This document shows positions 9,048-26,200 of a stretch of DNA of 64,000 bases, piece by piece. The notes beneath the pieces are model-generated. The model ran no database searches. It saw nothing but the letters and a program-made list of their open reading frames with translations, and had not been told where the DNA came from. This DNA comes from a virus. Position numbers and translations under genes: made by a program. The first letter of the stretch is position 1. Every line of letters begins with the position of its first letter. The DNA lies in IMG/VR virus record IMGVR_UViG_3300025141_000047, positions 1 through 64,000 of that record; one strand, given 5' to 3'.

Positions 9048-9199
9048 CACTTAGCGGGAATCAAACCTGCAAGCATCAATGGCGAGCGTTGCCTGATGTA
9101 GTGGCCGACCCCGACAAAGGACTTGTTGCTTCGGTCTATTGCTATCAATGCGGCCATTCCCGTTATGCACAATTGAAATTGATTGGAGGGAAACAGTGA
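9044..9199 (+). CDS. 51-aa Zn-finger microprotein (not in ORF track)
   Basis: MTLSGNQTCKHQWRALPDVVADPDKGLVASVYCYQCGHSRYAQLKLIGGKQ; ATGA and TGATG overlaps on both sides. Confidence 0.7.
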   Translation: MTLSGNQTCKHQWRALPDVVADPDKGLVASVYCYQCGHSRYAQLKLIGGKQ

Positions 9200-9465
9200 T
9201 GGTTTCAGTCAAAGTCGGCAGCCAAATCACGATTACTTCTGGCGACATGGAAGACATATTCCGTGTTCGAGGTCAATTGATTGACGATTACAAAATCTCT
9301 TTTGATACAGGAAAAGGATCAAAAGGGTATGATTGGTTCCTGGATTGGTCGCTACAACACAGTGATGAGATTTCAAGAGATGAGGCGATAACTCATATCA
9401 AGAAACGTCTTGATGAGGCCAAACTTGAATACGATGTGTTGGTTAAGACATATACGGATGATTGA
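9199..9465 (+). CDS. hypothetical protein
   Basis: GGAGGG RBS; ATG overlaps the upstream stop. Confidence 0.65.
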   Translation: MVSVKVGSQITITSGDMEDIFRVRGQLIDDYKISFDTGKGSKGYDWFLDWSLQHSDEISRDEAITHIKKRLDEAKLEYDVLVKTYTDD

Positions 9466-10438
9466 TACTATGGATGAGAAGATCGGTTTGGTTTGTTTTT
9501 CAGGCGGCAAGGATAGCACCGCTATGTTGCTGCGTATGCTGGAATTAAACGACCCCGATATGCCCGTCAATCGAATTGTCTTTGCTGATACAGGATTTGA
9601 GTTCCCTGAATTGCTTGAATACATGGATATGGTGATGAAATATATTAACATCAAATATCCTGAAAAGAACCTCAAACTTGAGATGGTCGGTTCCCCTAAG
9701 ACATGGGATGAATGGTTCTATGGTGTTATGAAGCGTGGAAACAACAAAGGAAAACAACGTGGCGCACCTCTTAGAGCATATCCTTGCTACTGGGCAAGAG
9801 AAGCAAAGGTTCAGCCTTTGCAGAAAGTGGCTAAGGAAGCGGATATTGCATACATTGGAATTGCTGCTGATGAAGCCCACCGTGTAGGTAAAGAGGATGA
9901 TCCACGCAACGCTAAGAACAGATACCCGTTGGTTGAATGGGGCTGGACTGAGGATGATTGCATCAAGTATTTGGATAGCCTCGAAATGGTCAATGAACTC
10001 TATGTGAACTTTGACCGTTTGGGGTGCTTCCATTGCATCAAACAACCGTTGGAGTCATGGTGGAATCTATGGCGTGGCTATCCTGAGTTCTGGAAGATCG
10101 CCAAACACTGGGATAAGGAAAGCGTGAAAGTGAGTAATCATGGGCTGCGCTCAATGAAACCAGGTAAGGATGGGTATTTGCTTGAAGAACTTGAAGAACG
10201 ATTCAAACAGGGGTATAAACCTCCTTCAAAGAAAGGAAAGTTCGATTGTAATTCCTGTAAAGCCGTTGCATTTACGGCGGTTGGTCAATTGAAGTTAGAG
10301 GACTTTGACAGCGATGATGCGATAGAACGTATTGATGAGAAGTTCATTGATGAAGAACCAACCGCTTGCGAAGTATTGCTTGAGCCAGAAGAGGACATCA
10401 CCTGTGATATTGTAGGGGGGTCTTTTGATGAAAATTGA
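9458..10438 (+). CDS. PAPS reductase/adenine nucleotide alpha-hydrolase (PP-loop) family protein
   Basis: FSGGKDS PP-loop, DTGFEFPE, GIAADE, YPLVEW, RLGCFHC. Confidence 0.85.
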   Translation: MIDTMDEKIGLVCFSGGKDSTAMLLRMLELNDPDMPVNRIVFADTGFEFPELLEYMDMVMKYINIKYPEKNLKLEMVGSPKTWDEWFYGVMKRGNNKGKQRGAPLRAYPCYWAREAKVQPLQKVAKEADIAYIGIAADEAHRVGKEDDPRNAKNRYPLVEWGWTEDDCIKYLDSLEMVNELYVNFDRLGCFHCIKQPLESWWNLWRGYPEFWKIAKHWDKESVKVSNHGLRSMKPGKDGYLLEELEERFKQGYKPPSKKGKFDCNSCKAVAFTAVGQLKLEDFDSDDAIERIDEKFIDEEPTACEVLLEPEEDITCDIVGGSFDEN

Positions 10439-10982
10439 TAGATCATGGGCAATGCCAAATGCACTTACATTTTCAATCCAACCAATAACATTGTTTTTGG
10501 AGGAAGAAATCAAAGGAGAGGAATGGGCTGATCCATTCGCAAGGAATACAGATTTGGCGAAATACACAAACGATCTTAATCCCAACACCAAAGCCCAATC
10601 TAATTTGGAAGCATTGGACTTTTTGAAAACTTTTGAGAATAATTCCCTTGACGGAGTTCTTTTTGATCCCCCCTATTCCCCACGTCAAATTAAGGAGGTG
10701 TATGATGAAATAGGAATCCCTCTCCATGATACAAAAAGTTCGGTTTGGTCGAATTGGAAAAAAGAAATAGCCAGAATCGTTAAACCTGGCGGCAAAGTCA
10801 TATCATTTGGATGGAACACCTGCGGAATCGGCTTAACACTTGATTTCAAAATAGAGCGCATATTGCTTGTATGTCATGGCGGGAACCATAATGATACAAT
10901 CGTGACGCTTGAGGTAAAGGGCGATAAAGCAAATTATCCCTCAGCAAAACAAACAACATTATTTCAGGAGGGGGAGGAATGA
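10425..10982 (+). CDS. small amino-methyltransferase (m6A/m4C type)
   Basis: ADPFA motif I-like, FDPPYS motif IV, RIVKPGG. Confidence 0.75.
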   Translation: MMKIDRSWAMPNALTFSIQPITLFLEEEIKGEEWADPFARNTDLAKYTNDLNPNTKAQSNLEALDFLKTFENNSLDGVLFDPPYSPRQIKEVYDEIGIPLHDTKSSVWSNWKKEIARIVKPGGKVISFGWNTCGIGLTLDFKIERILLVCHGGNHNDTIVTLEVKGDKANYPSAKQTTLFQEGEE

Positions 10983-11998
10983 AAGTTAGACCGCCTAAGC
11001 CCAGACCGATCCCCGTAAGCGGAGATTTGTATTCAACATACGCATGGCATCCAAACATGGCCGATGATAAAATCCTCCGTGTAAGTAAATCCTCACTTGG
11101 GGCTTTCCAAACCTGCGAGCAACAGTATTTCATCAAATATGTGCTTGGAGTCAAAGAGCCTGAAAACGATAACATGATTCGAGGAACAAACGTGCATGAC
11201 GCATACGAGTTCATTATGGATCGTAGCCTTGATGTTGAACACGCAACAAAGGTGAAAGAGCAACATGGCTATGAAGGCGTAAGAGGATATTTTGAATCTC
11301 TTATCCCTCCCGCACAAATCAAGAAGGGATGGGATGATGAATATGCCCTCCCTACTGGGAACGAATACACATTGGGCGAGCCTGAACATCTATCTCGATT
11401 GATGGAAGCCGAATCAAAGCGATTCATGGGTTCAAACCCCAATGCCTTTTTGCCTGTTGGAAACGAATTGGGCGTTGATGCTATCGTTGAACTTGACATT
11501 AACGGGACAAAGGTTCAGGCTCACTTGAACGGTTTCATTGACCGCTTGTTCATGGATGATAACGGCGATTATCACGTTCATGAATTGAAAACAGGGCTGT
11601 GGAAGGATAAGAAAACTAAGTATGAGAGCATGGCAAAAGAAATGGCTTTCTATGTGTATATGCTCAGTAAATCGCAGCAACCCACGCATGGCGGAGTCAA
11701 TATCCGCTATTGGGGATGGGATCACACAAAAGGCATAGAAGGAACTCCAACCCAGATTTACAGATTTATTGAACCTGTCAAGGCAGGTATCATTTCCGAT
11801 ATGCTCACCGATCTCAAAGCCCTTGTATCGGCACACCTTCGATACAAAGGAGATTTTAACGGCAAAATGTTTGCTACAAAACCGACTGGTGCTGAGAGGT
11901 ATTTCTGTCTGCCCTGGTGCGGGGTCAAGGGTTTTTGCCCTAAGTATGAGCGACACATGATGCCGCATGAAATGAGGGATAAAGTGGAGGGGAATTGA
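10979..11998 (+). CDS. PD-(D/E)XK Cas4/AddB-like exonuclease with 4 Cys (Fe-S)
   Basis: CEQQY, RGTNVH, GFIDR, ELKTG, C-terminal CLPWC...FCP. Confidence 0.85.
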   Translation: MKVRPPKPRPIPVSGDLYSTYAWHPNMADDKILRVSKSSLGAFQTCEQQYFIKYVLGVKEPENDNMIRGTNVHDAYEFIMDRSLDVEHATKVKEQHGYEGVRGYFESLIPPAQIKKGWDDEYALPTGNEYTLGEPEHLSRLMEAESKRFMGSNPNAFLPVGNELGVDAIVELDINGTKVQAHLNGFIDRLFMDDNGDYHVHELKTGLWKDKKTKYESMAKEMAFYVYMLSKSQQPTHGGVNIRYWGWDHTKGIEGTPTQIYRFIEPVKAGIISDMLTDLKALVSAHLRYKGDFNGKMFATKPTGAERYFCLPWCGVKGFCPKYERHMMPHEMRDKVEGN

Positions 11999-11999
11999 T

Positions 12000-13241
12000 G
12001 TGCGATATGTTAGCCTATTTAGTGGAATTGAAGCCTGTTCAGTCGGATGGAAAGACCTTGACTGGAAACCTGTTGCCTTTGCAGATTTTGACGAGTTCCC
12101 CTCAGCCGTTCTCAAACATCATTATCCAGAAGTGCCGAATGCGGGAGATGTGTTGAAACATGACTGGACTCAATACAAAGGAAAATGCGAACTCATTGTC
12201 GGAGGAAGCCCCTGTCAGTCTTTCTCCCATGCTGGAAAGCGACTTGGAATGGATGATCCACGTGGCAACCTCGCCCTTCACTATCTCCGAATTGTTAGGG
12301 ACATTCAACCGAAGTGGTTCATCTATGAAAACGTGCCAGGTTTATTGTCATCAAACGGAGGGGAAGATTTTGCCTCCTTTCTCGGAGAAGTGGCGGAACT
12401 CGGGTATGGGTTCGCCTATCGAGTTCTTGACGCTCAATACTTCGGAGTTCCCCAACGACGGCGAAGAGTCTTTGTTGTCGGGTGTGCTGATGGAGATTGG
12501 CGAAGTGCCGCAGCGATTTTATTTGACAAGTCGTGCCTCATCGGGGATTCTGCGAAGGGCGGATCGGAGGGGAAAAACGCTACCCTCTTCTCTCAGGCAA
12601 GCGTTGGAGACGAGAGCAGGGGATTACCTCAGCGAAGAGGAATAGTTCATTGTGAAAAAGTCGGACCAACAATGACGAGTTCTGGTCCACCGTATTCACG
12701 GACTGGAAACGAAAGAGTTGAGCATGAAGCGTTGGTTGTGCAAAAACAAAACGCAATTGGATTTTCCCATACGCAGGGCTTAGATTGCCAACCATCAACA
12801 AATCACTTCCCAACGCTACGTGCGGAGGGCAACGGAATGGCCGTGAGCCTCCCCATACACGACAAAGCGACTCGCTTCAAAGGCGGAGGCGAAGGAAGGA
12901 ATGATGATGGCGCAAGTAATTTTCTGGGAGTAGGCAAAGAAACCGATCCAATGTATGCTTTGACCGCCAATGATAACCACATGGTCTTTCATCACATAGT
13001 TCGAAGGCTTACCCCTATTGAATGCGAGCGATTGCAGGGATTCCCTGATAACTACACGCAAGTTGCTTGGAAAGGAAAACCTGCTGAGGAATGCCCAGAC
13101 GGACACCGCTACAAGGCACTGGGCAATAGCATGGCCGTTCCAGTTATGCGATGGATTGGAGAGAGGATTGATATGTTGGATTCAGCAGACCTCTCAAAGC
13201 GGGAACGGGCAAAAACGACTCAGCAAATGACTTTGTGGTGA
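12000..13241 (+). CDS. C5-cytosine DNA methyltransferase
   Basis: SLFSGI, GGSPCQSFS, ENVPG, PQRRRRVF, RRLTPIECERLQGFP, GNSMAVP. Confidence 0.95.
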   Translation: MRYVSLFSGIEACSVGWKDLDWKPVAFADFDEFPSAVLKHHYPEVPNAGDVLKHDWTQYKGKCELIVGGSPCQSFSHAGKRLGMDDPRGNLALHYLRIVRDIQPKWFIYENVPGLLSSNGGEDFASFLGEVAELGYGFAYRVLDAQYFGVPQRRRRVFVVGCADGDWRSAAAILFDKSCLIGDSAKGGSEGKNATLFSQASVGDESRGLPQRRGIVHCEKVGPTMTSSGPPYSRTGNERVEHEALVVQKQNAIGFSHTQGLDCQPSTNHFPTLRAEGNGMAVSLPIHDKATRFKGGGEGRNDDGASNFLGVGKETDPMYALTANDNHMVFHHIVRRLTPIECERLQGFPDNYTQVAWKGKPAEECPDGHRYKALGNSMAVPVMRWIGERIDMLDSADLSKRERAKTTQQMTLW

Positions 13242-14347
13242 ATAACATGGCTCTCTTCAATCATTTCCCACGTGAAATTGACATGAGGACTCGAAAGGTT
13301 ATCACCACTGAAAAGCAATTGCAGCACTACATCAATACGACAAACGGCAAAGGAAACCTCACCACTACTGTTTATGGATTTAGGGCTTTGAAACCAAAGG
13401 GAAACCGATGCGAATACAATACTGCAATAATCCCTCACTTTGTCATGGACTTTGATGCCGATCAAGGAGTCCGTGTTCATGGGCTGGATGAAGAAGTCGC
13501 AAAGAACAAGTGTTGTGATGAGGTTTTATCCCTTTCCAAACATTTCAAATTCAAGGGCTATCGCCATGCTATTTGGTTCACAGGTGGCGGTTTCCACATT
13601 TGGACTAAACTTGACAGGGAGTATGTTTTGCCCCCTGATAAAATGGCCGACTTGTTATTTTCAGGCCGAATGAAAATCAATGAATGGGTTAAGCGATACA
13701 ACATGAAAACTCTTGACCCTGTGGTGTCCTTTCGACCAGATAGACATATACGCATCCCAAACACATACAACTTCAAACGCCAAATTTGGGGCATTCCGAT
13801 TCAACATGAGGATTTAGCGCAGGGTTGGGATTTCATCGTTGAGAAAGCCAAAGAACCGAAACCTGGAATGCACCTTTATGATGGGCGAGGAATGGGACTT
13901 GAAATTATTGAACGTGATTCTGTGGATATGTTCAAGGGGCGATATAATGCCGATACAAGGACATTTGAAATGGAGGACTTGAACATTGACATTGAAAGAA
14001 TCAACAACATACCCATGCTTCCCTGCTTGGCTCAAGCCGCTTGCGAAAAGGGCGGCAATCCACCGCATAAGCCACGATCTTATCTCATGATGTATCTAAT
14101 GGATTATTTCAGGAACTTCGCCAGACCTGCAAGAGAGGCTAAAGTTCCCAATAGTGAAGTCCTAACACTTACTCACGCATTCATACGTTCTTTAGAATGG
14201 TCGGATTACAGCCCTAAAGAAACATCAAAATACCTTCAACATGGTGTTGATCGGTATTACTTGACTCCAACTTGTCCTACGATATATCATGAAGGATTGT
14301 GTGTCGGCAAGTGTCCGTATTATGATGAGAAGGGGGCAACCCCATGA
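13235..14347 (+). CDS. archaeo-eukaryotic primase, PriS-PriL(C-terminal Fe-S) fusion
   Basis: MDFD, FTGGGFH, RHIRIPNT catalytic motifs; LPCL...PTCPTI...LCVGKC PriL-like Cys cluster. Confidence 0.85.
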   Translation: MVNNMALFNHFPREIDMRTRKVITTEKQLQHYINTTNGKGNLTTTVYGFRALKPKGNRCEYNTAIIPHFVMDFDADQGVRVHGLDEEVAKNKCCDEVLSLSKHFKFKGYRHAIWFTGGGFHIWTKLDREYVLPPDKMADLLFSGRMKINEWVKRYNMKTLDPVVSFRPDRHIRIPNTYNFKRQIWGIPIQHEDLAQGWDFIVEKAKEPKPGMHLYDGRGMGLEIIERDSVDMFKGRYNADTRTFEMEDLNIDIERINNIPMLPCLAQAACEKGGNPPHKPRSYLMMYLMDYFRNFARPAREAKVPNSEVLTLTHAFIRSLEWSDYSPKETSKYLQHGVDRYYLTPTCPTIYHEGLCVGKCPYYDEKGATP

Positions 14348-15627
14348 AATACAAGTTGCTTCATGGTGATTGCCTCAAGAAAATGGCCGAGATGGATGAC
14401 AATTCCGTTCACGCCATCGTCACCGATCCACCATACGGGCTTTCATTCATGTCAAAGAAATGGGACTACGATGTGCCTTCTGTTAAAATTTGGAGGGAAA
14501 CATTTAGAGTTCTCAAACCAGGAGGATTCCTTCTTTCATTTGCTGGCTCTCGCACCTATCATCGCATGGCGGTGAACATTGAGGATGCAGGTTTTGAAAT
14601 CCGTGACCAAATCATGTGGGTCTATGGTTCGGGCTTCCCTAAGTCGCATAACATCAGCAAGGCGATAGACAAGGCCGCAGGTGTGGAAAGGACAGAAGTT
14701 ATAGGCACACGGCATCGGAATGTCAAACCTTTCAATGACGAGGAAGGTTGGAACAAAAATAATACTCAAGGAGATTATGAATACAAAGCACCAGCAACCA
14801 AAGAAGCAAAACAATGGGATGGTTGGGGTTCAGCCCTCAAACCTGCCCATGAGCCTATCGTGGTCGCCCGTAAGCCTCTCATCGGAACTATCGTTGAGAA
14901 TGTGCTTGAGCATGGGACTGGCGGCTTAAACATTGACGTTTGCCGCATTGAACATAACGACCCTATGATAACTCGAAAAGACTTTGATAGCAACACAGGA
15001 GAGATTTTTCAAAGGGCTAAGGGCGATGAAGCAGGTCCAAGTGCAAAGGGTCGCTTCCCTGCTAATTTCATTCACGATGGATCGGATGAAGTCGTGAGCC
15101 AGTTCCCTGATACGAAAGGCGCAACAAGTCGCACAGATACTACTTCAACAGGAATGTTTGCGGGAGGGGATGCTGGAACTGTATATCCTGATTCTGGTTC
15201 CGCCGCACGATTCTTTTACTGCGCTAAAGCAAGCAAAGCCGAGAGAAACATAGGTCTTGAACACCTCCCTAATGTTGAGCGCACTGATTACGGCGGCTTC
15301 CACAGCGAAGAAGGACTCATCAACAACGGGAGAAACCCTGAGAATAGGGAACTGATGAAGAACCCTCATCCAACGGTAAAGCCTGTCAATTTAATGAAGT
15401 ATTTGTGCCGTCTTGTGACTCCTAAAAATGGAATAGTCCTTGATCCGTTTATGGGTTCGGGAACAACAGGAATTGCTGCAACACAAGAAGGTTTCAACTT
15501 TGTTGGTATTGAAATGGATGACGAATATATCAAAATCGCAAATTATCGAATCTCACATTGGGTGGAAGAAAAGCAAGAACTCATTTTAGAACAAAGACGA
15601 CAAAAGACATTATTTCAAGACTGGTGA
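14344..15627 (+). CDS. beta-class N4-C/N6-A DNA methyltransferase
   Basis: VTDPPY N-terminal; HPTVKP and DPFMGSGTT C-terminal. Confidence 0.92.
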   Translation: MKYKLLHGDCLKKMAEMDDNSVHAIVTDPPYGLSFMSKKWDYDVPSVKIWRETFRVLKPGGFLLSFAGSRTYHRMAVNIEDAGFEIRDQIMWVYGSGFPKSHNISKAIDKAAGVERTEVIGTRHRNVKPFNDEEGWNKNNTQGDYEYKAPATKEAKQWDGWGSALKPAHEPIVVARKPLIGTIVENVLEHGTGGLNIDVCRIEHNDPMITRKDFDSNTGEIFQRAKGDEAGPSAKGRFPANFIHDGSDEVVSQFPDTKGATSRTDTTSTGMFAGGDAGTVYPDSGSAARFFYCAKASKAERNIGLEHLPNVERTDYGGFHSEEGLINNGRNPENRELMKNPHPTVKPVNLMKYLCRLVTPKNGIVLDPFMGSGTTGIAATQEGFNFVGIEMDDEYIKIANYRISHWVEEKQELILEQRRQKTLFQDW

Positions 15628-15631
15628 TTAT

Positions 15632-15889
15632 ATGACAGAAGAAAAAGAATTAGAAGAGATACGAAAAAAGAAAGCCGAAGAAATGCTACAAGCCCACCAT
15701 AAGGGCGAAGCACCGCCAGAAGTGTTGGACTGGTCATTCCGTCGAAACAACAAAACAGGTTTCTTTGAAATCTGTCAAAAAGAAAACATGGTTGCGATCA
15801 CGCAAGACCCCAACTGGGCTTCTTTGGTCGTTGATATGCTAAACAGCCTTACATTGGCGCAACAGGTGGTTCAAAATGACGAAAACTGA
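15632..15889 (+). CDS. hypothetical protein
   Basis: GGTGA RBS; N-terminal ELEEIRKKK helix. Confidence 0.65.
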   Translation: MTEEKELEEIRKKKAEEMLQAHHKGEAPPEVLDWSFRRNNKTGFFEICQKENMVAITQDPNWASLVVDMLNSLTLAQQVVQNDEN

Positions 15890-16589
15890 ACGCATCCTTT
15901 TCATTGACAATCGAGAACGTTCTGGCCTTGAAGGTCTTGTAATCAAGTATTGTGATAAAAATAAACTCAAATATGAAGTTCGCCAAACAATAATCACGGA
16001 TTATTCATTTGCTGATGTAGGGATAGAGGCAAAATCAATTGATGATTACATGAGCAGTATGTATTCAGGGCATCTGGAAAGACAACTACAAAACCTTGAA
16101 GACAATTATACAAATCCAATTCTTTTGATTCATGGAACGCTTGATCAGTATGTCACTAAATCCGCAAAGAGGGGGCGAAAAATACGATTCATTACAGCAT
16201 TTGCATCATTTACTGGCTCGCTCGCTCGTTATCATACCGACTTTGATGTTTCAATTTTGATTTTCCCTGATAAATCAACAGCAGCACGTTTCATCTGTAA
16301 GCGTTTTGAGAAGCATGGAACGCTCGGCTCATCATCAACATATAAATTGCTTAGAAAGACCGCTACTGAGGATATGAGAATTGACATTTTACAAGGGGCG
16401 GGATGCAGCGTAGCAATCGCAAAGCGACTCCTTGAACAATATGGCTCTATCGTTGAAATATCATCCTTAACGGCCAAAGAACTGCAAGCGGTTGAAGGAA
16501 TCGGCAAGGTTAGAGCAAAGAGAATCGTTGATGCTTTCAACAGCGAAGAACCGATTGCACAAGAGAAAGTGAAGATGTCAAGGGCTTGA
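15876..16589 (+). CDS. ERCC4/XPF (Hef-like) structure-specific nuclease with (HhH)2
   Basis: IDNRE, DY...IEAKSIDD, VEGIGKVRA. Confidence 0.88.
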   Translation: MTKTERILFIDNRERSGLEGLVIKYCDKNKLKYEVRQTIITDYSFADVGIEAKSIDDYMSSMYSGHLERQLQNLEDNYTNPILLIHGTLDQYVTKSAKRGRKIRFITAFASFTGSLARYHTDFDVSILIFPDKSTAARFICKRFEKHGTLGSSSTYKLLRKTATEDMRIDILQGAGCSVAIAKRLLEQYGSIVEISSLTAKELQAVEGIGKVRAKRIVDAFNSEEPIAQEKVKMSRA

Positions 16590-16595
16590 TTTAGT

Positions 16596-16608
16596 GAGGC
16601 TTCATATA
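16596..16608 (+). promoter_or_regulatory. putative TATA-box promoter (GAGGCTTCATATA)
   Basis: Intergenic; GAGGC prefix as at 2435; TTCATATA also precedes the protease gene. Confidence 0.45.
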
Positions 16609-16657
16609 CCCTACTTGCGGTGGATAGAGATGCCCAAAGAACAACAGGAGGAATAAC

Positions 16658-18109
16658 ATGATATTGAAACCCACATCGGACTCAGGAGATCGCAAATGGT
16701 TTGACTACTCGCTTGTCAAAACACCACATGAAGGAAGTAAATACATCAAAGAATACATTGAACGATTCAATACGGTTTCTTTCTTCAACGAGTTCGCAGG
16801 TTTGCTTTCTTTGTTTTATGTCGTAGGTCAAGTAATTTCACCTTATGTGCGTGTTCCAATTCATGGGACTCACCTCGATACAAGGGTTCACGTCTATTGG
16901 ATTCAACAATCCAGAACGGGTAAATCAGCAGCCTATGAGTTCACCAAGCAATTGCTTGATGCTTGCGATGTTGAAAGTGCTAAATTCACATCTGGTTCGG
17001 ATGCGGGGTTGTTGGGACACGTTGATGCTGAACCCGAATATGATGAAGCAGGGAAGCCAACTGGAAAGACAACCTATGTAGTCACCAAAGGTTTGCTAAA
17101 TGGCTACAAAACACTTCTATTTGATGAAGCAAGTGTTTTGCTTGATGATAAAAAGTCATATTTTTCCGAGAAAATCCTGTATTTACAAGAAGCGATGGCT
17201 CCCATTGGATCGGCCACAAACAATTTGGCTAAGGTTTTGAAAGGGGCTGATATTCAAGTGACATCTGGCGTTTCTATATGGGCGACCACTTTTCCTCCAA
17301 AGGACATTATGCACCATGTATTGGAAAAGGGATTCTTCCAGCGTGTATTCCTATATCAAAATGATGTAGGACAAGAACTACGGCAAACCACCAGTGAACA
17401 CCGACTTCAAGGGACTTATGTTCCTGTTCCAGAAAAGGTATGGGGATATGATGCGTTGGCCGCATTTATTCTTGAAAAGAAAGACGAAGTGCGAACACGC
17501 CTATTGAAAGCCGCACGTATGAGCCTCGAAGAATGGGATGCGTTAGAGGATTTTGAAAGGGACAAAATAGCCAATAACTATTGTTATGACATATTTACTG
17601 TTGATGAATCATACCACGCAGCATTGTTGAATGCGACCACAGATTACTACGAACTTGTTAATCAAATACACGACCCAAACGTTAAGGAAACGGCAACATC
17701 GTTTATTCCTAACATTGAAAATTATACCATCACTTTTGGAAACATCATCGCAACAATCATGGGTTCAACGGTGATTACCGCCGATCACATTATGATGGCG
17801 ACTGAGATTATCTATGACAACTTGCACAACCTGGTGATATGGCTTGAACAGAAACAGGATTTCAAAGCAAAGAAAAAGCGAGATGCGTCGTTGCACGAAT
17901 GGAAAGTCGCATACAACAAATGCAAGAAAATGGCGCATTCACGTTCAAAGCGAGAATGTGTTCCAAAGAAGGAATTGGAAAGTGTTTATGCGGTCAATCA
18001 AGGAGTTAGCAAGAAAACGGCTGAAAGAAGGTTGAAGAAACTCACAGATTCCCCCGATGCCGACAGGCTCATGGATGGCCGCAACGCATTCATTACATTC
18101 AACTGGTGA
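16658..18109 (+). CDS. MCM-like AAA+ replicative helicase (short N-terminus)
   Basis: Walker A SRTGKS, SDAGLLG, Walker B LLFDEA, LQEAM, Arg finger FFQR, winged-helix-like C-terminus. Confidence 0.75.
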   Translation: MILKPTSDSGDRKWFDYSLVKTPHEGSKYIKEYIERFNTVSFFNEFAGLLSLFYVVGQVISPYVRVPIHGTHLDTRVHVYWIQQSRTGKSAAYEFTKQLLDACDVESAKFTSGSDAGLLGHVDAEPEYDEAGKPTGKTTYVVTKGLLNGYKTLLFDEASVLLDDKKSYFSEKILYLQEAMAPIGSATNNLAKVLKGADIQVTSGVSIWATTFPPKDIMHHVLEKGFFQRVFLYQNDVGQELRQTTSEHRLQGTYVPVPEKVWGYDALAAFILEKKDEVRTRLLKAARMSLEEWDALEDFERDKIANNYCYDIFTVDESYHAALLNATTDYYELVNQIHDPNVKETATSFIPNIENYTITFGNIIATIMGSTVITADHIMMATEIIYDNLHNLVIWLEQKQDFKAKKKRDASLHEWKVAYNKCKKMAHSRSKRECVPKKELESVYAVNQGVSKKTAERRLKKLTDSPDADRLMDGRNAFITFNW

Positions 18110-18113
18110 TAGC

Positions 18114-18758
18114 ATGAAGCGAAAAGTGAAAATGTTCCTGAAAGAAAATGACATTTTACCAATAGCGGTATTTTCATCAACGGATGCTTCATCCTTAGAA
18201 ACAGGATATTCCGATCCCAGTAAATTCTCACTTGACATGGTTATGATTTACAAAGACAATTATTTTCATGCGTTCTCGTTGGGTGAAGATCAGCAATATG
18301 TGGTTCAAGAGCAGCGAATCAAAGGGCATCACCTTCTTGCTTTGCCCGATTTTATCAAGGGCATGACTTTATGTGGCTATGACCTTGATTTCATCATTAA
18401 ACTACTTGATTTGAATTGCCGCCCTGATGAGGGATTTGAGGCATGGGGGAACCCGAACCCAATAGACATTTCAAAGACATTAAGAGATTTGACAGGAAAA
18501 CGCTACAATCTATTTAATTTGGCTTTCTGGAATGCTTGCGATGATATGTCCCGACTTTCCGAAGTATTCCAGTTGCACCGATTGAAAATTATAACTGATT
18601 GGTTTAATGGTTCAAGACGAAACATTATTCGTAAATTGAGAACTGATGTGAAGTGGATTTCGCAACTGGTCTATCGAATGCAAAAGCATAAATCAATTAT
18701 TGTTAAGGATGAAAACGGCGATTGGGAAAAATTGAGTCTGGTGGCGGAAGAGGAATGA
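18114..18758 (+). CDS. RNase H-like/DnaQ(YprB)-like protein, probably degenerate
   Basis: LCGYDLDF, DISKTL...YNLFNLA, RTDVKW; ExoI DxE not evident. Confidence 0.4.
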   Translation: MKRKVKMFLKENDILPIAVFSSTDASSLETGYSDPSKFSLDMVMIYKDNYFHAFSLGEDQQYVVQEQRIKGHHLLALPDFIKGMTLCGYDLDFIIKLLDLNCRPDEGFEAWGNPNPIDISKTLRDLTGKRYNLFNLAFWNACDDMSRLSEVFQLHRLKIITDWFNGSRRNIIRKLRTDVKWISQLVYRMQKHKSIIVKDENGDWEKLSLVAEEE

Positions 18759-18934
18759 AAGAGTATCGTGATCAAGTAATGCAAACCTGTTCAGGTTGCG
18801 ATACCGATGTGTTGGCGATTCGCATAAACGGGTTTTATGCGGGGAGTCGTGATAGAATCTTTTTATGGGAATGCCCTATGTGTAAATTCATCTGGCGCAA
18901 GCCAAAACCAATAGTGGTGAATGAAAATGACTAA
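18755..18934 (+). CDS. Zn-ribbon protein
   Basis: CSGC...WECPMC. Confidence 0.7.
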   Translation: MKEYRDQVMQTCSGCDTDVLAIRINGFYAGSRDRIFLWECPMCKFIWRKPKPIVVNEND

Positions 18935-19328
18935 AGAACATTGTCAAATATGCAATCAAGACGGCCACTTATCGCATGATTGCTCGCATGATGATGAATG
19001 TAAATGTTGTCCTTGCGGGGAAGAATGCCAGATGTTTTGCACTTGCCCTAAATCTGCACCGCATATAGATAATGAAGATCACCGCAAATCAGCCGACAAA
19101 CCCTTTGAAAAAGCATGGACTTTGATGAAGTCCGATTGGTGGGAAACCATTGATTCGGAAATGGAGAAACCTGTTGCTCGTTTTGAAGGTGGACCGATTG
19201 ATTGCCCCGAATGCAAAGGCTTACATGGGGGAATGATTCGTGAAGAAGAAGGACACCTCAATTTTGTTTGCCCTGATTGCGGCTACATGGAAAACGCAAA
19301 GTATTTTCAACCCCTAACAAGTGAGTGA
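18921..19328 (+). CDS. Cys-rich protein: CCHC zinc knuckle + FEKAW tag + Zn ribbon
   Basis: CQICNQDGHLSHDC (CX2CX4HX4C); PFEKAWTLMKS; CPECKG...CPDCG. Confidence 0.7.
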   Translation: MKMTKEHCQICNQDGHLSHDCSHDDECKCCPCGEECQMFCTCPKSAPHIDNEDHRKSADKPFEKAWTLMKSDWWETIDSEMEKPVARFEGGPIDCPECKGLHGGMIREEEGHLNFVCPDCGYMENAKYFQPLTSE

Positions 19329-19332
19329 TTGA

Positions 19333-20478
19333 ATGTCAAATACAAATCTCGCTGAGGGTCATGAGAAAACGGCTACGGGCGCATCAACCTATCAAAACGA
19401 TGGCCTCCGTGATTCCGATGTCCTCACCAGTCCATCATTGACAAACAATGTTGAACGTGGACTTGGCAACGGCGTGATTCCGATCACCCTCAACCGATAT
19501 GATGAAGCCAACAGAAACAACCCTGTTAGCGGCAATTGTTGTGTTCGACCCAATGGAACATTGGGAACCACTTCGGAGATTTATGTTGATGCTGGCGTAG
19601 TTCAACTTGATGGAATGTTTTACAATGTCGGTTCGGCATCTGTATTGGATATATCGGCAGCGACGAATTATCATTCTGGCTATCATGGGTCGGCAATCCC
19701 AAACGGGACAAATCCAGGAGATGAAGCAATACTACTTGTCTATGTTGATCCTCGAAAGCCAAATAACATTGGATTTACATACGGCTCTTATGTTGATACC
19801 GCTACTGGACTATACCCCCAATCCTCTTCAAACCACCTTGTCTTGCAGAATACGGTATTAGCAGCCGTAAGGGTTGGAAAGGGGGCTTCTGCACCCGTAG
19901 TTCTCGCCATAGAGGACAAGAGGGTATTCATTAGGCCTGGTCCAGTTGCTTTGTCGGCAATTGAACATAGCGATGGTTCGGAAAACAACCTTCGGAATGA
20001 TTTCATAGGTGGGTTTAACGCCGCCGATTTACCGATTACCGATCTCGGAGTCTTGTTTGCTCGAAACCCAAGTGGGTTCGGCGCAACACCTCAAGGCGTA
20101 GGACAAACACATTTGTTCTTTCAATCAGATCTTGGTTTAGGACAAACACCTGATGGCGGAGGGACTTATCAAATCACGCCAGTTCATAAAACATCAATCA
20201 CCCCCTCTATTCCTTATGTTGGACCAACGGTTTTGCCTATTGGAACAGCAGCCCCTTCTGGTTTGCTTTACAAACCATTGTTAAGTGAGGAAGATGGCAC
20301 AACTCCTTTAGTGACTGTTGATGTATATGATGCGGCAAATGTGTATTTAGGCAGATCGCTTCCCCTTTTGGGATTCGTATTGAATCCAGGTGATTTGACG
20401 CTTATGGACCCTGCACCAGCAGGTTTTCCCACCGCAGCAAGCGCAGTAATCACCTATATTCATGCACAGCACACTTGA
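19333..20478 (+). CDS. putative virion (tail/baseplate-like) protein
   Basis: Gly/Ser/Thr/Asn-rich beta composition; IYVDAGVVQLDG and IEDKRVF patterns typical of phage tail proteins. Confidence 0.45.
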   Translation: MSNTNLAEGHEKTATGASTYQNDGLRDSDVLTSPSLTNNVERGLGNGVIPITLNRYDEANRNNPVSGNCCVRPNGTLGTTSEIYVDAGVVQLDGMFYNVGSASVLDISAATNYHSGYHGSAIPNGTNPGDEAILLVYVDPRKPNNIGFTYGSYVDTATGLYPQSSSNHLVLQNTVLAAVRVGKGASAPVVLAIEDKRVFIRPGPVALSAIEHSDGSENNLRNDFIGGFNAADLPITDLGVLFARNPSGFGATPQGVGQTHLFFQSDLGLGQTPDGGGTYQITPVHKTSITPSIPYVGPTVLPIGTAAPSGLLYKPLLSEEDGTTPLVTVDVYDAANVYLGRSLPLLGFVLNPGDLTLMDPAPAGFPTAASAVITYIHAQHT

Positions 20479-20483
20479 TATAC
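20474..20483 (+). promoter_or_regulatory. putative TATA-box promoter (CTTGATATAC)
   Basis: First T lies 31 nt upstream of leaderless ATG 20506. Confidence 0.4.
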
Positions 20484-20505
20484 AAGCAAATATGCGCTTG
20501 CTCTA

Positions 20506-20745
20506 ATGCTTCAACTTCAAAATGAGATTTTTTCTTATGAACGTTCTTGGGAACAAATAGAGGATATGCTGGTTCGTGCTGAAAAAAAGCAAAATGAATG
20601 GGTTATGAGATTTCATGAAGCCAAAGAATCAATGGATAAAGAAACCATGAGAGAATGCGCCCGAAACAAGAAGGCATTAGAAGGGGTAGTCAAAACACTT
20701 CGATGGACTTTGGGTGATCGTGGAATTGATAATCCTTTGAGTTAA
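20506..20745 (+). CDS. hypothetical helical protein
   Basis: Last + strand ORF; its stop abuts the stop of the convergent gene. Confidence 0.7.
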   Translation: MLQLQNEIFSYERSWEQIEDMLVRAEKKQNEWVMRFHEAKESMDKETMRECARNKKALEGVVKTLRWTLGDRGIDNPLS

Positions 20746-21972
20746 TCAGTAATCAAAAAGACTCTTCTTTTTCATCCCTCTTTGCACGTGTTCAGGAAAG
20801 TTCCTCAATCCGAGAACCTCAACTACGGGTGTTGCATTCCTTTTTGGTTTTCTCATCCATGTGTGGGTATCAAAATTGGCATCCAATAAATCATCAATCA
20901 TTTCTTGATTTGGCAAACCTGTTTGTGGATTGACCATGTAATTTGAATAAACAACTGGTCCATCATGTTCAGCCCCTATTTTGATTGTATCTCTTTGAAG
21001 TTGATCGTATAATCCCCCTTGTAATTGTTCATCGGAACCCCCATACTGTATTTTCCGACCAACATATTGAGGATCTAGGTATAGGAACTCATCGCCTTGC
21101 ATCAACTTTGCCGTATCTCTTAAATCTCCTGAATGTATTTCAACGTCTTTCAAACGGTTTGCATAACCGCTTAGATCAATTGAGCCAACATCACTTGGCA
21201 TCCACCGTATCTGTTTTCCATCCTTCATTGGGGGGTTTCTCCAACCAGATTTGTATGCTGGACCTTCAGTATATCGAGAGCCACCATACCATTCAGGGAA
21301 TTTTGCCTTTTGCTTAGGGCTTGTTGGATATTTCAAACCAAAGAATGATTGTTGATTTGCCCCAACTAAATTATGAGCCAATTCCATGTTTTCATCGTCA
21401 GTCAGATCCCGCCCCATGACATCTCTTTGGAATCTCAAATCATTAAACCGATCAATCATTTCAAACATTCTTTCTTTATTTTTAGGCAATTCAACATTAC
21501 CCATGCCTGTTTTCAGTTGTTGGAATAAATTAGTGTTATCAGGGTTAATGTCTGCAAAAAATCCTGTTCCCCTATTTAATCCGAGAATTGTTGAACCGCT
21601 TCCACCATAAAGTTCAGCAGGTCGAGCATCAGGGAAAAAATCAGCAAGACCTCTCATGTAAGGTTGAATACCTGTTTTTCCACCAACCCAATTTACAACT
21701 GTGGGAAGCATTTGTTCGCTTGATTTGAAACCTGGTTGTAAATCTTTGAATGAAGCACCACCCTTCATTTTAGACCACGATTTGTCTTGTAATTTACCAC
21801 TTTGATATGGAAAAGGGAATGGTGATAATTTCTTATTTTCCCCTCCCCATCCGTGAATTTGTTCATTGAGAAGGGGCATCAAATCATCCATGCTTTCATA
21901 GGATTTGCCTTCATGGTAAATATCGGCCTTCATCAGATCCCATGCTACATCAAACACCATATCAAGCCTCAC
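20746..21972 (-). CDS. Dam/D12-family N6-adenine DNA methyltransferase with N-terminal FDVAW tag (start possibly ATG 21960)
   Basis: NWVGGK, ELYGGSGS, ADINPD, YLDPQY (DPPY variant), VYSN. Confidence 0.8.
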   Translation of the reverse strand: MRLDMVFDVAWDLMKADIYHEGKSYESMDDLMPLLNEQIHGWGGENKKLSPFPFPYQSGKLQDKSWSKMKGGASFKDLQPGFKSSEQMLPTVVNWVGGKTGIQPYMRGLADFFPDARPAELYGGSGSTILGLNRGTGFFADINPDNTNLFQQLKTGMGNVELPKNKERMFEMIDRFNDLRFQRDVMGRDLTDDENMELAHNLVGANQQSFFGLKYPTSPKQKAKFPEWYGGSRYTEGPAYKSGWRNPPMKDGKQIRWMPSDVGSIDLSGYANRLKDVEIHSGDLRDTAKLMQGDEFLYLDPQYVGRKIQYGGSDEQLQGGLYDQLQRDTIKIGAEHDGPVVYSNYMVNPQTGLPNQEMIDDLLDANFDTHTWMRKPKRNATPVVEVLGLRNFPEHVQRGMKKKSLFDY

Positions 21973-22226
21973 CTCTTTGTGGAGGCTCTTTTGCCCCCTG
22001 CGCCTAATTGACGGCGCATGGCGGGTCGGACTGTTCCCCTGCTCTTGTTGCGCTTGTATCGGCGTTTGGTTCGCTCTCGCTTGACCTTGCGTGAAATGTC
22101 CCAGATGCGGTGTTCAGCCTGTCTGTATGGTCTGTCGCTGATGTTTGATTGCGTGTAGCCTCGAAAGCGGCCTTTACTGATTGAATCCCATGCGGCTTCA
22201 AACGGATCGGCGGAGGCTTTGAACAT
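21969..22226 (-). CDS. tagged, highly basic (protamine-like) protein
   Basis: DPFEAAWDSISKG followed by an Arg/Lys-rich region. Confidence 0.7.
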   Translation of the reverse strand: MFKASADPFEAAWDSISKGRFRGYTQSNISDRPYRQAEHRIWDISRKVKRERTKRRYKRNKSRGTVRPAMRRQLGAGGKRASTKR

Positions 22227-22234
22227 CTCTTCAC

Positions 22235-22717
22235 CTAAGCCATATTTTCCGTTGCATCATCGTAATAATCCATGAATCCTTCGGCAACTTCTTCCCAATC
22301 AACATCGCTCATTGCATCAACTTCACCATATCCACTTAATTCTTCATGAAAACCTTCAATATCCATCATTGCGGCAGGTAAGACCTTTGTTGCGAGCAAC
22401 GTTTTGACCTCATCTCGACTTTCACCCATATTAACTGCGGATTGAATGGCGTTTATGGTTGTAAAGTAAATGCTTTCAGTGTTTTGCGCCCATAATTCAG
22501 CACTACGGGTTGCCGTAGCCATGTCTTTTAGCATCAAAGACCAAGCAGTATCAAAGGACTTCTTTTGCATCATTCCAGATACAGCACCGCCAATCAAATT
22601 ACCTGCTGCTTGTTGAACTTTAGGATTCTTTGCTGCTGCCGCCCCAACTCTTGCTGCACCTGCAACCAGTGGTGCAACTTTTTCTTCATTCTTTTCATCG
22701 TTCTTTTCTTCGGACAT
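22235..22717 (-). CDS. tagged hypothetical protein
   Basis: Ala/Gly-rich N-part, SFDTAWSLMLKD, acidic helical C-part. Confidence 0.7.
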   Translation of the reverse strand: MSEEKNDEKNEEKVAPLVAGAARVGAAAAKNPKVQQAAGNLIGGAVSGMMQKKSFDTAWSLMLKDMATATRSAELWAQNTESIYFTTINAIQSAVNMGESRDEVKTLLATKVLPAAMMDIEGFHEELSGYGEVDAMSDVDWEEVAEGFMDYYDDATENMA

Positions 22718-23058
22718 TATCTCACTTCCATTAGAATATCAACACGGACTTCATTTGTTCCGTTCTTTGTGATAGGCATGAATGTTGCCCTAAAAGAAGG
22801 CGAATCAAGAGGGTTTGTCCCATGAAGGACAATCTCAGTGATGGCCTGTTCGCTGCTCAACTGGGTATCAAACAATGCACTTACAGATATAGTCCGATCA
22901 TCAATGCGTTGAATCAATGTGTCTTGGCTCATTTTGGTGTTCCCTGCGCCTCCATCACGGCTTGAGGCATCGGAAGTCCCAGAACCAAGCGAACACTTCT
23001 TGATGAGCGTTTGGAGGTGGTCGGTCAAAGCGGCTTTTAGGGGGTCAAGAACAGGCAT
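22717..23058 (-). CDS. putative tail-collar/baseplate-associated protein
   Basis: SLGSG...ITEIVL...RATFMPITK pattern; position at the end of the tail module. Confidence 0.45.
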   Translation of the reverse strand: MPVLDPLKAALTDHLQTLIKKCSLGSGTSDASSRDGGAGNTKMSQDTLIQRIDDRTISVSALFDTQLSSEQAITEIVLHGTNPLDSPSFRATFMPITKNGTNEVRVDILMEVR

Positions 23059-23285
23059 TATTTCACCTCCCTCATTGAACTTTTCACATCATGCCTTCTT
23101 GATTCGCAATAAGGTGTTTGGGGGTCCATGCACATATACGCAGGTTCGACAAAACGGCCACTTGAGCCAATAAATCCATCTTGATATTCCATTGGACCTT
23201 TGCATTCAGGGCAATCCATAGGAAGCATCAACTTGTGCCGACTTTTTCTTTTTAGCAACCCCCATGCTTTTTCAAATGCGCCCAT
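23058..23285 (-). CDS. tagged Zn-ribbon microprotein
   Basis: MGAFEKAWGLLKR; CPECKG...CMDPQTPYC. Confidence 0.7.
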   Translation of the reverse strand: MGAFEKAWGLLKRKSRHKLMLPMDCPECKGPMEYQDGFIGSSGRFVEPAYMCMDPQTPYCESRRHDVKSSMREVK

Positions 23286-23286
23286 A

Positions 23287-26200
23287 TCATTTCACCACGT
23301 AGTTGCGACTCTTACTCATGCCGATAGGGAATCCCCTCTTAGAATCATCCCTAACACCTATCTTTCCAAGCCCGTTTTTGTGTTTTGCACCGATGATGAA
23401 ACCTGTTTCATTGATGTTGCGAACACGGACTCTATGAACTGAAATGATATTGACGGATGAAGACATAGTGATGTTTTCTTTGGTGTTTTTATCGCCCGAT
23501 GAAAAATTCAATCCGCTAACATCAATTGTGCTTGTTTTTAAATCGGTCAAAATACCTTCAATTCCTTTTTCGTATTGAGCGATTGTAAGATCGGTCTTGA
23601 GAGAATGGAAACTATGTTTTGCTTCAAAAACAACGAACTTTCCAATAACGCCTTGAGTCGGTAAATTGATGGCGACCACATCACCTGCTGAAATTGAAGT
23701 TGCATTGATTAAACCGTATAATGTAATCATTGGCGCACCATTTTCAGCCCTCGCCAACAGGGTTTTAGCCAATTTACGTGCGGCTGATACGCTCTTAATT
23801 CCAGGTATTTGTTGTCGGAGGGTTTTGACTACTTCTTCCTCACTACCTGCCGATGCTTCACGTATTTTCTCGCTATCTCGGACTCGAATGAATACAATTT
23901 CATTCCCTGCGATAACATCTCCAACGATGACAATTTCATTTGGAGAATCAAATAATTTACTAACGGAAACCTTCTCAACTCCATTCTCAACGCCGATCCG
24001 AATGCCCTTTTCATTGAAAACTTTCTTTGAATAAATCAAAGCCCCGTTTCTTTCATTGATTATTTGTCGGCCATCAATCTGTGAAATGTTCCTTAGAACC
24101 TCCATTGTGTTCAAACCTTTTACTTCACGTGAAACATATTCAAGGCTATGGTCGTTAATCTGTTTCAACATTGGGTGTGCGCCCAAGTATTCTTCCATAT
24201 CTCTTGAATTTTGATGGAAGGCATTTGAAGGCGTGACTGAGATTCCTGATTGATTGCCCCCTGCATCATTCAATAGATGCAAAGCCGCATCGGTTGTCCT
24301 AATGCCGATATATCCATTTTGTGCTGCGATTACATCACCGACAACCATTCCTGAGTCGGAAAGCGTTTTACCTGATAAATCATTGAAAACCATGAACGTT
24401 TCGCCTTCTTCGGTGATGATTTCAGCAACACGCCATTTCATGTTGTGTGAATCAATCACATACGGTGGTGAAAAAGTGCTTGAAAGAGAACGGCCATCAA
24501 CCTTTACACTTTGAAGCCCGTTTTTGTTCTTTATTGCCCCCTTTTCACCATTACTTATGATGAATGGTTGTTGCGATGCCATGATGAAATCCGATGGCTC
24601 GTAAGCAATCAAACCTCGATAATTTAATGGAGTCTTTACGACTTCATTCTTTTCATTATCAAAATGATACCACGCTTGAGATTGAATTTTCATAGCAACA
24701 ACGGCGTTATCAATGAATGTTGGCGAGATCGCTTGAACAACCAATGGGCTTCTGGCATCGTCAATAACTCCTGTGGATGAAGAAACATCGGTATAATACA
24801 ACTCCAATCCTGTGAAATCCGATATTGTTAAGCCGCCTAAATCAACAATTGTTCCAGTGGTGGTTATGTCGTTTTTGGTTATTGAAGTGTAAGTGATTGA
24901 ACCTGTGTGTGAGAGAGCAAATAACTTTCCAGTTGGAGGCAAAATTGAAGCATCATCAACTAAGAAAACGCCACCCCCTTTGCTGGCCTTAACTGTGATA
25001 CGTGGATAATACCTCATTGCCTCTTTTGATTGAGAAACCTTTCCAGTGAAAGTATGTCGTGCATGATCACCCATAACGCCAGACACCAAATCATATTTGG
25101 TTTCGGATTGATAAATCGGTTCATTACCTCCTGTTGAGAATGATTGTGAATAGCGTGGCTCAACGGATGGGAGGATTTGCCCATCAACAATTCGGTGTGC
25201 ATCGGATTTGGAAAATTGAAGCATATTTGCTGTTGGAATCAAATGCCAAGTAATGTCATATTCATTTGCATTTGGATATTCGATTGAGAATGCCGACCCT
25301 GCCGAAGTGATCGGTTCAACTTTGTTTTCACCCCTTGCATAATTCATCTCAAACATACCATACCTCTTATCACGGTCAAATGGCATTGAGGCAAAAGCCG
25401 ATGTTGAGATAGAGCATCGTGGACCCAAAACCCATCCGTCTTGAAGAAGATCGGAGGCAAAACCAAACAATTTTAATGGCCTTACTGGTCTTACGATGTA
25501 ATCAACATACTTTCTTTGAGGGTGCGAACTTGTAGGATAATTTGAATTTGAGTCCAGTTCGGTGCTTAATGAATCATCGTTTTCTTCTGTTCGATTGAGA
25601 TATGTTTTTCGGAGAATATACACCCCTCCCCATGCAGGGAGTCCACTAACGCCTCGAACAGTCCATGAATCTAAAGCATGAGTCTTGTAATCTGTTCTTA
25701 CCGTATCTGTTGAGAGAAGGCCGCTAATTGCGCCTTTAGCGTTATTTGAATCAGGACTCCATGTAGGTTTGATTCTAAAGTCTGGGGCGGCTGAGGTTGA
25801 ACCTGTCCCATCCACCGAAAAACCATTATTCGCTAAGAATGTTTTAATCGTATGTGATGGCAAAACAGGGAATTGTCGCCCAAGCATGAGATCGGTGTGT
25901 AATGACAAAGCACGTGTTCCTGTGACCGCATAAGAAACATCTTCATTTTTGTTCCTCTCACTTTCAACTTCCATAATCAATCCTAAGCGTGGTTCTGTTC
26001 TTGCTTGAACTTGCCTTGTGTCGGAGATTTCATTTAGAACATCTGGCCTTGTTTCAACAATGTTAGCCCCGCCTGAGTATTGTGTATGGGAAAACCCATT
26101 TGGAGGGTATGATGTTTTACTATCTGTTTCATGATAGGCATGAAAGTTCGTGTGCAGCGCATTGCCTTTTAATTTGTAAAAATTTGATGGCGCACCAAAC

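Follow-up and report, generated by a model that had tools for sequence, protein, structure and literature searches.

We analyzed a 64,000-base window, the first 64 kb of the 92,798-base IMG/VR virus record IMGVR_UViG_3300025141_000047 (estimated completeness of 88%), which encodes several DNA modification enzymes with short C-terminal tails resembling the PCNA-interacting protein (PIP) box. A crude call yielded 91 nonoverlapping open reading frames (ORFs) in the whole record. They include six DNA methyltransferases, four in the window and two past it, and a PAPS-reductase-like enzyme carrying a similar motif close to its C terminus. The enzymes, with their lengths in amino acids (aa), and their motifs are located as follows.

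9410..10438, plus strand: PAPS-reductase-like (PP-loop) enzyme, 342 aa (PF01507, E 5e-13)
10283..10306, plus strand: internal PIP-like motif GQLKLEDF of the PAPS-reductase-like protein, before its variable acidic tail (translation checked)
10425..10982, plus strand: small DNA methyltransferase, 185 aa (phrog_11619, DNA methyltransferase, E 1.7e-45)
10947..10979, plus strand: small-methylase tail KQTTLFQEGEE, core KQTTLF (translation checked)
12000..13241, plus strand: C5 cytosine DNA methyltransferase, 413 aa (PF00145, E 8e-60)
13212..13238, plus strand: C5-methylase tail KTTQQMTLW, core QMTLW (translation checked)
14344..15627, plus strand: beta-class N6/N4 DNA methyltransferase, 427 aa (PF01555, E 7.5e-36)
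15598..15624, plus strand: beta-class methylase tail RQKTLFQDW (translation checked)
20746..21972, minus strand: D12-class (Dam-like) N6-adenine methyltransferase, 408 aa, N-terminal leader FDVAWDLMK (PF02086, E 2.8e-7)
20749..20772, minus strand: Dam-like tail KKKSLFDY; in the PIP register, Leu is at position 4 and Tyr at position 7, with Lys replacing Gln (translation checked)
record 73563-75857, past the window: 764-aa D12 methylase ending AQRTLF (profile match)
record 77328-78731, past the window: 467-aa C5 methylase ending QQKTLLDDFR (profile match)

Profile scores of the window methylases (PF00145, 203.4 bits; PF01555, 124.6 bits; PF02086, 30.9 bits) are above the curated cutoffs, as are those of the two methylases past the window (36.4 and 46.1 bits). 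PHROG 11619 was the sole profile matched by the small methylase, and each methylase matches one methylase family only. All four window methylase peptides are genuine ORF C termini, and translation placed them and the internal GQLKLEDF exactly where a sequence-only reading of this DNA had put them.

To quantify the occurrence of the tails, the last 12 residues of every ORF in the record were compared with the pattern [QK]x[ST]L[FWL]. It was present in 6 of the 91 ORFs, and the carriers are all six methyltransferases. None of 246 shadow ORFs matched, and 0.07 matches per proteome are expected with shuffled tails. A Fisher test of methylases (6/6) versus other ORFs (0/85) gave a P value of 1.5e-9, with a pattern that was drawn up post hoc, after the tails were known. 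The same holds for a looser pattern, [QK]xx[LIM][FWYL], which retrieved the identical six ORFs versus 1.86 expected. When the position in the protein was disregarded, the strict pattern occurred 10 times in 29,799 residues; six of these occurrences are the methylase termini, where every motif lies within the final 11 residues.

The same bias was observed in related genomes. In a syntenic relative, G002, all three methylases (ending EQRTLFDW, AQKSLFDW, and PQQKTLF) matched along with one unknown protein, out of 68 ORFs in total. For G005, the closest relative, the loose pattern matched two of three methylases (the small and the C5 enzymes) and no other ORF; the third, Dam-like, methylase ends KTKRLFDY. 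Enrichment of PIP-like C termini on methylases over other proteins and random tails, which had been proposed as a check on the sequence-only reading, is therefore present in this record and repeated in both relatives. Since the six enzymes belong to four families, show no meaningful pairwise similarity, and differ in their tail-coding DNA as well, the tails are, judged from the sequences, convergent rather than copied. The earlier suggestion that unrelated methyltransferase classes share one appended tail was thus borne out.

The position of the tails relative to the catalytic domains was assessed enzyme by enzyme. In an alignment of beta-class methylases, the catalytic domain stops at a conserved R402 and is followed by a variable charged linker and then by the tail, which in relatives reads QKSLFDGW, QRSLFEW, QKSLFDW, QRSIFDEW, or KQTFLW. 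Some beta-class homologues are tail-less and stop at the domain boundary. Homologues from named phages of E. coli, Salmonella, and Mycobacterium also have no tail, and the tail was accordingly rejected as a general trait of the beta-methylase family. The beta-class gene (14344-15627) is missing from G005, where both flanking genes are 92 to 95% identical to those of the record, and the gene thus appears to have been acquired recently, with its tail already in place.

For the C5 methylase, Q[MTK]xLW is retained in 12 distinct orthologous tails at 52 to 74% identity. The codon of the tail Leu varies (TTG, TTA, and CTG) while the residue is constant. Most C5 homologues below ~50% identity terminate directly after WIGERIDM, the end of the catalytic domain, and one at 40% identity (L223) ends NLW only. 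No relatives of the 467-aa C5 methylase located past the window were found in viral contigs. Comparison of the Dam-like methylase with sixteen relatives revealed the orthologue ends KSIFDY(R/K), NKTLMDF, KRLFDY, NKNLFDF, QKSLFQYQS, KKTLYDF, and KTILDF; a more distant group, at 42 to 44% identity, ends QRKLF, QQKLF, QRRLF, or QQTLF. In the small methylase, KQTTLF is retained in close orthologues only (91 to 96% identity), and homologues at 56% identity or below stop after the last strand or have other short tails (TTLFDI, HNLFTI, QTQLF, and HNLxEW). In an AlphaFold model of the small methylase [mean predicted local distance difference test (pLDDT) score of 87], the fold extends to residue 165 and is followed by coil (residues 166 to 185) with a pLDDT of 52 to 55. 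Finally, GQ[LM]xL[EA]DF is retained in all orthologues of the PAPS-reductase-like enzyme at 68 to 93% identity, with a variable acidic tail beyond it; in lineages at 52 to 57% identity, the protein ends EPKEWW, KPKELW, or QQHTIEWL instead.

Overall, these comparisons identify the tails as appended flexible elements under protein-level selection. In the beta, C5, and small methylases, the tail lies beyond the conserved domain end and is missing from more distant homologues, as expected of the add-on that the sequence-only reading had proposed. Q, L, and W/F are retained across orthologues that are 52 to 74% identical, despite synonymous changes of the Leu codon. The likelihood that the tails reflect chance, low-complexity composition, or a nucleotide constraint from overlapping downstream starts is negligible. 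The search patterns were, as stated, set after the fact, and the small-methylase QEGEE does overlap a GGAGG...ATGA start region. This explanation is effectively refuted by the enrichment test (including the 0/246 shadow ORFs and the repetition in other genomes) and by the synonymous-codon evidence, the amino acids being retained through synonymous changes and differing downstream contexts. At the small methylase itself, the QEGEE codons (CAGGAGGGGGAGGAATGA, 10962-10982) include a GGAGG and share an ATGA with the start of the gene that follows; these residues may have been shaped by translation initiation of that downstream nuclease gene, not by protein function.

We compared the tails with those of known archaeal PCNA clients. 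The published archaeal PIP consensus is QxxLxxFx, and C-terminal PIP boxes are described for Fen1, RNase HII, family-B DNA polymerase (PolB), the RFC large subunit, PolD DP2, NreA, and Hef (PMC7776575). In five archaeal genomes, Fen1 ends QKTLENWF, QSSLDGWF, KTTLEKWFG, or QTRIDQWF, and RNase HII ends QSNLSAFF or QSHLSEFF. Like these, the viral motif is an extreme C-terminal flexible peptide with a Gln/Lys-x-Thr/Ser-Leu core and an aromatic residue nearby. The viral QKTL core is identical to that of the Methanoregulaceae Fen1 tail, and the QSSL and KTTL cores are alike. KKSLFDY has the canonical spacing with Lys for Gln, the orthologue tails QKSLFDW, QRSLFEW, and QKSLFQY have exactly the canonical spacing, and QKTLFQDW and QKTLLDDF have an aromatic residue at position 8. 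The viral set differs from the known clients in two respects. Most of its tails have the aromatic residue at position 5 and/or 8, not at 7 to 8, and some end at position 5. In addition, neither DNA methyltransferases nor a PP-loop enzyme, the carriers here, feature in the published client lists that were searched; no methylases are included in the list of PMC7776575.

In relatives that encode PolB, the C terminus of the polymerase changes along with the tails of the methylases encoded on the same contig. In one lineage, PolB ends KSxVAWL and the methylase ends YKTLHDWL or HKTKHEWV. In another, PolB ends KPQEWW, the methylase ends QRSLFEW, and the gene directly following that of PolB encodes a PAPS-reductase-like enzyme with the end EQPEPKEWW. 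A PolB ending in RPVSLW is accompanied by methylases ending in QKSLFDW, QRTLFDW, and QQKTLF, and one ending in AKPLW is accompanied by methylases ending in KQTFLW and VQKSLW. Such co-variation was observed, as judged by eye and in sister lineages only, in six of eight lineages. The C-terminal tail of archaeal PolB is an established PCNA-binding element, and a PolB-PCNA complex (PDB 3a2f) is among the structure matches to the clamps of the relatives. The inclusion of the PAPS-reductase-like enzyme in the sequence-only reading also held up, its motif being conserved in orthologues and its C terminus in a sister lineage being nearly identical to the tail of that lineage's own PolB. The motif is present in the record, is exclusive to modification enzymes, sits on an appended flexible tail, is conserved, and tracks the PolB C terminus across sister lineages.

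The tails could also be tags for degradation (hydrophobic degrons) or regulation that confine methylase activity to a limited period: they are short, exposed, hydrophobic C termini, and the enzymes that bear them could do harm if left unchecked. Control of CcrM by Lon in Caulobacter provides a model for such a function, and the flexible tail in the model of the small methylase is compatible with it. Sharing of the tail by PolB and the PAPS-reductase-like enzyme in sister lineages is left unexplained by degrons, as are the conserved Gln/Lys three residues ahead of Leu and the likeness to Fen1, and we consider this function improbable.

The same data leave more room for a common docking partner that is not PCNA and that would bind the modification enzymes and, in relatives, PolB. 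Candidates are a viral replisome hub (for example, the AAA_24/RadA-like ATPase, the 483-aa helicase-like protein, or a single-stranded DNA-binding protein) and a virion component. Exclusivity, conservation, and co-variation with PolB show a common partner only and do not name it, most tails depart from the canonical PIP box, and three of the six methylases bear a possible capsid-targeting N-terminal leader. A partner of this kind is nevertheless unlikely, given that the likeness to the PIP tails of genuine archaeal Fen1 and RNase HII proteins extends to the QKTL core and that archaeal PolB C-terminal tails are known to bind PCNA (PDB 3a2f). The genome encodes roughly a dozen further proteins that bear the leader and have no tail, so the tail is not a packaging signal. 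Leaders are present at the start of the Dam-like methylase (MVFDVAWDLMK; 21925-21960, minus strand) and of the 764-aa D12 methylase (MSDIFEKAWWDSL; record 75800-75857), and leader-bearing methylases possibly combine a packaging tag with a clamp-type tail.

We next considered whose clamp the tails would bind. The sequence-only reading had allowed for host or viral PCNA and for a PCNA gene elsewhere in the genome. No such gene was found across the 92.8-kb record in profile, phmmer, and BLAST searches. Specifically, neither PCNA nor PolB was detected in the record or in G005 with Pfam PCNA_N, PCNA_C, and DNA_pol_B, with phmmer using the PCNA of a relative, or with a divergent-clamp profile, and PolB was also not found in either genome by BLAST and phmmer with three PolBs. 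G005 covers the gap of ~11 kb that separates the ends of the record.

Clamps are encoded by other relatives. The PCNA of one of them, G001, matches PDB PCNAs at E 7e-5. In G002, a 265-aa gene directly upstream of PolB (L099:1395-2192, corresponding to G002 20395-21192) was missed by Pfam and matches PHROG 947, "processivity factor." Its product folds as PCNA in an AlphaFold model (pLDDT of 89), with Foldseek matches to archaeal PCNAs at 2e-13 and template modeling (TM) scores of 0.63 to 0.73; according to the model, it is a very divergent PCNA-fold sliding clamp. Relatives of this clamp are also found at L014:5002-5802 and L004:2755-3558, and only ~10 are present in a collection of 5.8 billion proteins. 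In G002, the clamp and PolB (20395-23516, L099) lie between an AAA_24-like ATPase gene and a primase-like gene. At the corresponding position, the record (9139-13241) has first a 108-aa ORF (9139-9465), which is not homologous to the clamp whose place it takes; then follow the genes of the PAPS-reductase-like enzyme and the small methylase, that of a PD-(D/E)XK nuclease, and finally that of the C5 methylase. G005 likewise lacks the divergent clamp and PolB pair. Because the record and G005 encode no PCNA or PolB, host PCNA is the likely partner of the tails of this virus, and of the two options in the sequence-only reading, viral PCNA falls away and host PCNA stays.

The gene content of this group marks this uncultured marine virus as archaeal in nature, since its relatives encode PCNA-type clamps and PolB, G005 encodes a thermosome, and the genome organization is magrovirus-like. 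The full-length group II chaperonin of G005 (L084:7119-8738; Cpn60_TCP1, E 7.5e-132) is ~40% identical to diverse archaeal thermosomes, and its gene sits in the ~11 kb missing between the ends of the record. Seventy-nine of its 80 best cellular matches are labeled archaeal, the exception being a metagenome-assembled genome titled "Candidatus Acidiferrales bacterium." Similarly to magroviruses (Philosof et al. 2017), the group has genomes of ~100 kb in which replicative and structural genes form separate modules. It shares with them replication proteins of archaeal type that are very divergent and a thermosome gene, here in the sister genome G005. All 26 published magrovirus genomes encode a DNA polymerase and a sliding clamp (PMC5434244), whereas the record and G005 have neither, and the published magrovirus text is silent on methyltransferases (PMC5434244). 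No close relative of the terminase was found in the GenBank phage collection.

This archaeal character bears on a further explanation, in which the virus infects a bacterium and the motif is the pentapeptide Qxx[LM]F that binds the bacterial beta clamp; the published form of that motif is QL[SD]LF (PMC9690074). QTTLF, QKTLF, QRTLF, and KSLF do fit such a C-terminal pentapeptide, and the beta-class methylase has homologues in contigs of uncultured viruses with the ends QLSLF, QPTLF, QDTLF, or QQKLF. The relatives, in contrast, encode two-domain PCNA-fold clamps and family-B polymerases, not three-domain beta clamps (DnaN). Together with the almost exclusively archaeal matches of the G005 thermosome and a genome organized as in magroviruses (PMC5434244), the PCNA-type clamps of this viral clade make beta-clamp binding highly improbable. 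The beta-clamp-like ends of the homologues read PRQLSLF, EQPTLF, EQDTLF, QQKLF, and EQQLF (L030, L058, L076, L077, L072, and L042; contigs from uncultured viruses). A beta-methylase homologue from Methanomicrobiales virus BK063671 (L316) ends RQERLFL.

We favor the interpretation that the tails are PIP-box-like motifs that dock the modification enzymes onto PCNA for replication-coupled modification, with a probability of roughly 65%. The Q/K-x-T/S-L-F/W C-terminal peptides would tether each viral methyltransferase to the PCNA sliding clamp, and the PAPS-reductase-like enzyme would probably be tethered through its internal QLKLEDF. Since the virus encodes no clamp or polymerase, the clamp would be supplied by the host and loaded onto viral DNA undergoing replication. 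New DNA would then be modified right behind the fork, before host nucleases meet unmodified sites. We thus infer PCNA as the partner, the host as its source, and replication-coupled protection as the purpose.

Several observations weigh against this interpretation. When strict Qxx[LIVM]xx[FWY] was searched for in the last 14 residues, it was found in none of the six tails. Three tails stop at position 5 or 6 (QRTLF, QMTLW, and QTTLF followed by QEGEE), a form undocumented here for archaeal PCNA clients. The ERCC4 nuclease of the record has no such tail, though archaeal XPF can use PCNA. The co-variation with PolB is drawn from relatives alone, as the record itself has no PolB or PCNA, and it is broken in G004, where PolB ends KIDWI and the methylase ends ERVDLF.

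Replication-coupled DNA methylation via PCNA is textbook knowledge for eukaryotic DNMT1, whose motif lies in a long N-terminal regulatory region and serves the maintenance of CpG methylation. The viral motif, in contrast, is C-terminal and located on four unrelated small prokaryote-type methylase families, and its origin is independent. The likeness to DNMT1, a methyltransferase with a PCNA-type motif, is one of analogy, not membership: the DNMT1-type layout, with an N-terminal PIP region upstream of a C5 domain, was not found, the motifs being C-terminal and each protein matching a single family. DNMT1 is brought to newly replicated DNA via its PCNA-binding motif, and it is the only case of PCNA-coupled methylation that we found in the open literature (PMC9690074, citing Iida et al. 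2002). Nothing was found there on clamp motifs in methylases of archaea, their viruses, or phages.

The tails would thus represent a known kind of interaction, PIP-type clamp docking, with viral DNA modification enzymes as new carriers. What is new is that six methylases from four families are tailed, that a PP-loop enzyme joins them as another type of putative client, that the tails co-vary with PolB in sister lineages, and that the virus has no clamp. Binding of the tails to PCNA, if real, would account for how a rapidly replicating virus shields each newly made genome from host restriction, and methyltransferases and a PP-loop enzyme would be added to the list of archaeal PCNA clients. In that case, the tail would also be a simple sequence marker by which to recognize, in viral dark matter, enzymes that act on DNA and whose function is unknown, and it would exemplify the co-evolution of a docking peptide with the clamp in use, be it viral or of the host. 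More tentatively, and short of what we would call probable, clamp-tethered modification enzymes may be a general, repeatedly evolved viral strategy in both prokaryotic domains. This magrovirus-like virus would have lost its own polymerase and clamp and would hang six methylases of four families and a PP-loop enzyme on host PCNA, with three of the methylases possibly delivered in the virion and the tail co-evolving with the clamp used.

Among the neighbors of the carrier genes are the PD-(D/E)XK nuclease, an ERCC4-HhH nuclease, and unannotated genes of the replication module. A protein of 221 to 230 aa encoded by G001 (L090:11278-11970) and G004 (L094:12210-12875) is 35% identical between the two viruses; it has no Pfam or PHROG match, and the ESM Atlas gave no lead for the 221-aa copy of G004. 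Its tail, KxxEW[FL] or QKKIEDWL, resembles the PolB and methylase tails of its own genome, and the protein may be a further clamp client. In the record, the 483-aa helicase-like protein (16658-18109), which has a Walker A motif and no Pfam match, ends AFITFNW. Its orthologues end AFIALNW, YVAFKWGA, and FVVLSWGAK; the near-terminal Trp is conserved and could be either part of the fold or a docking element.

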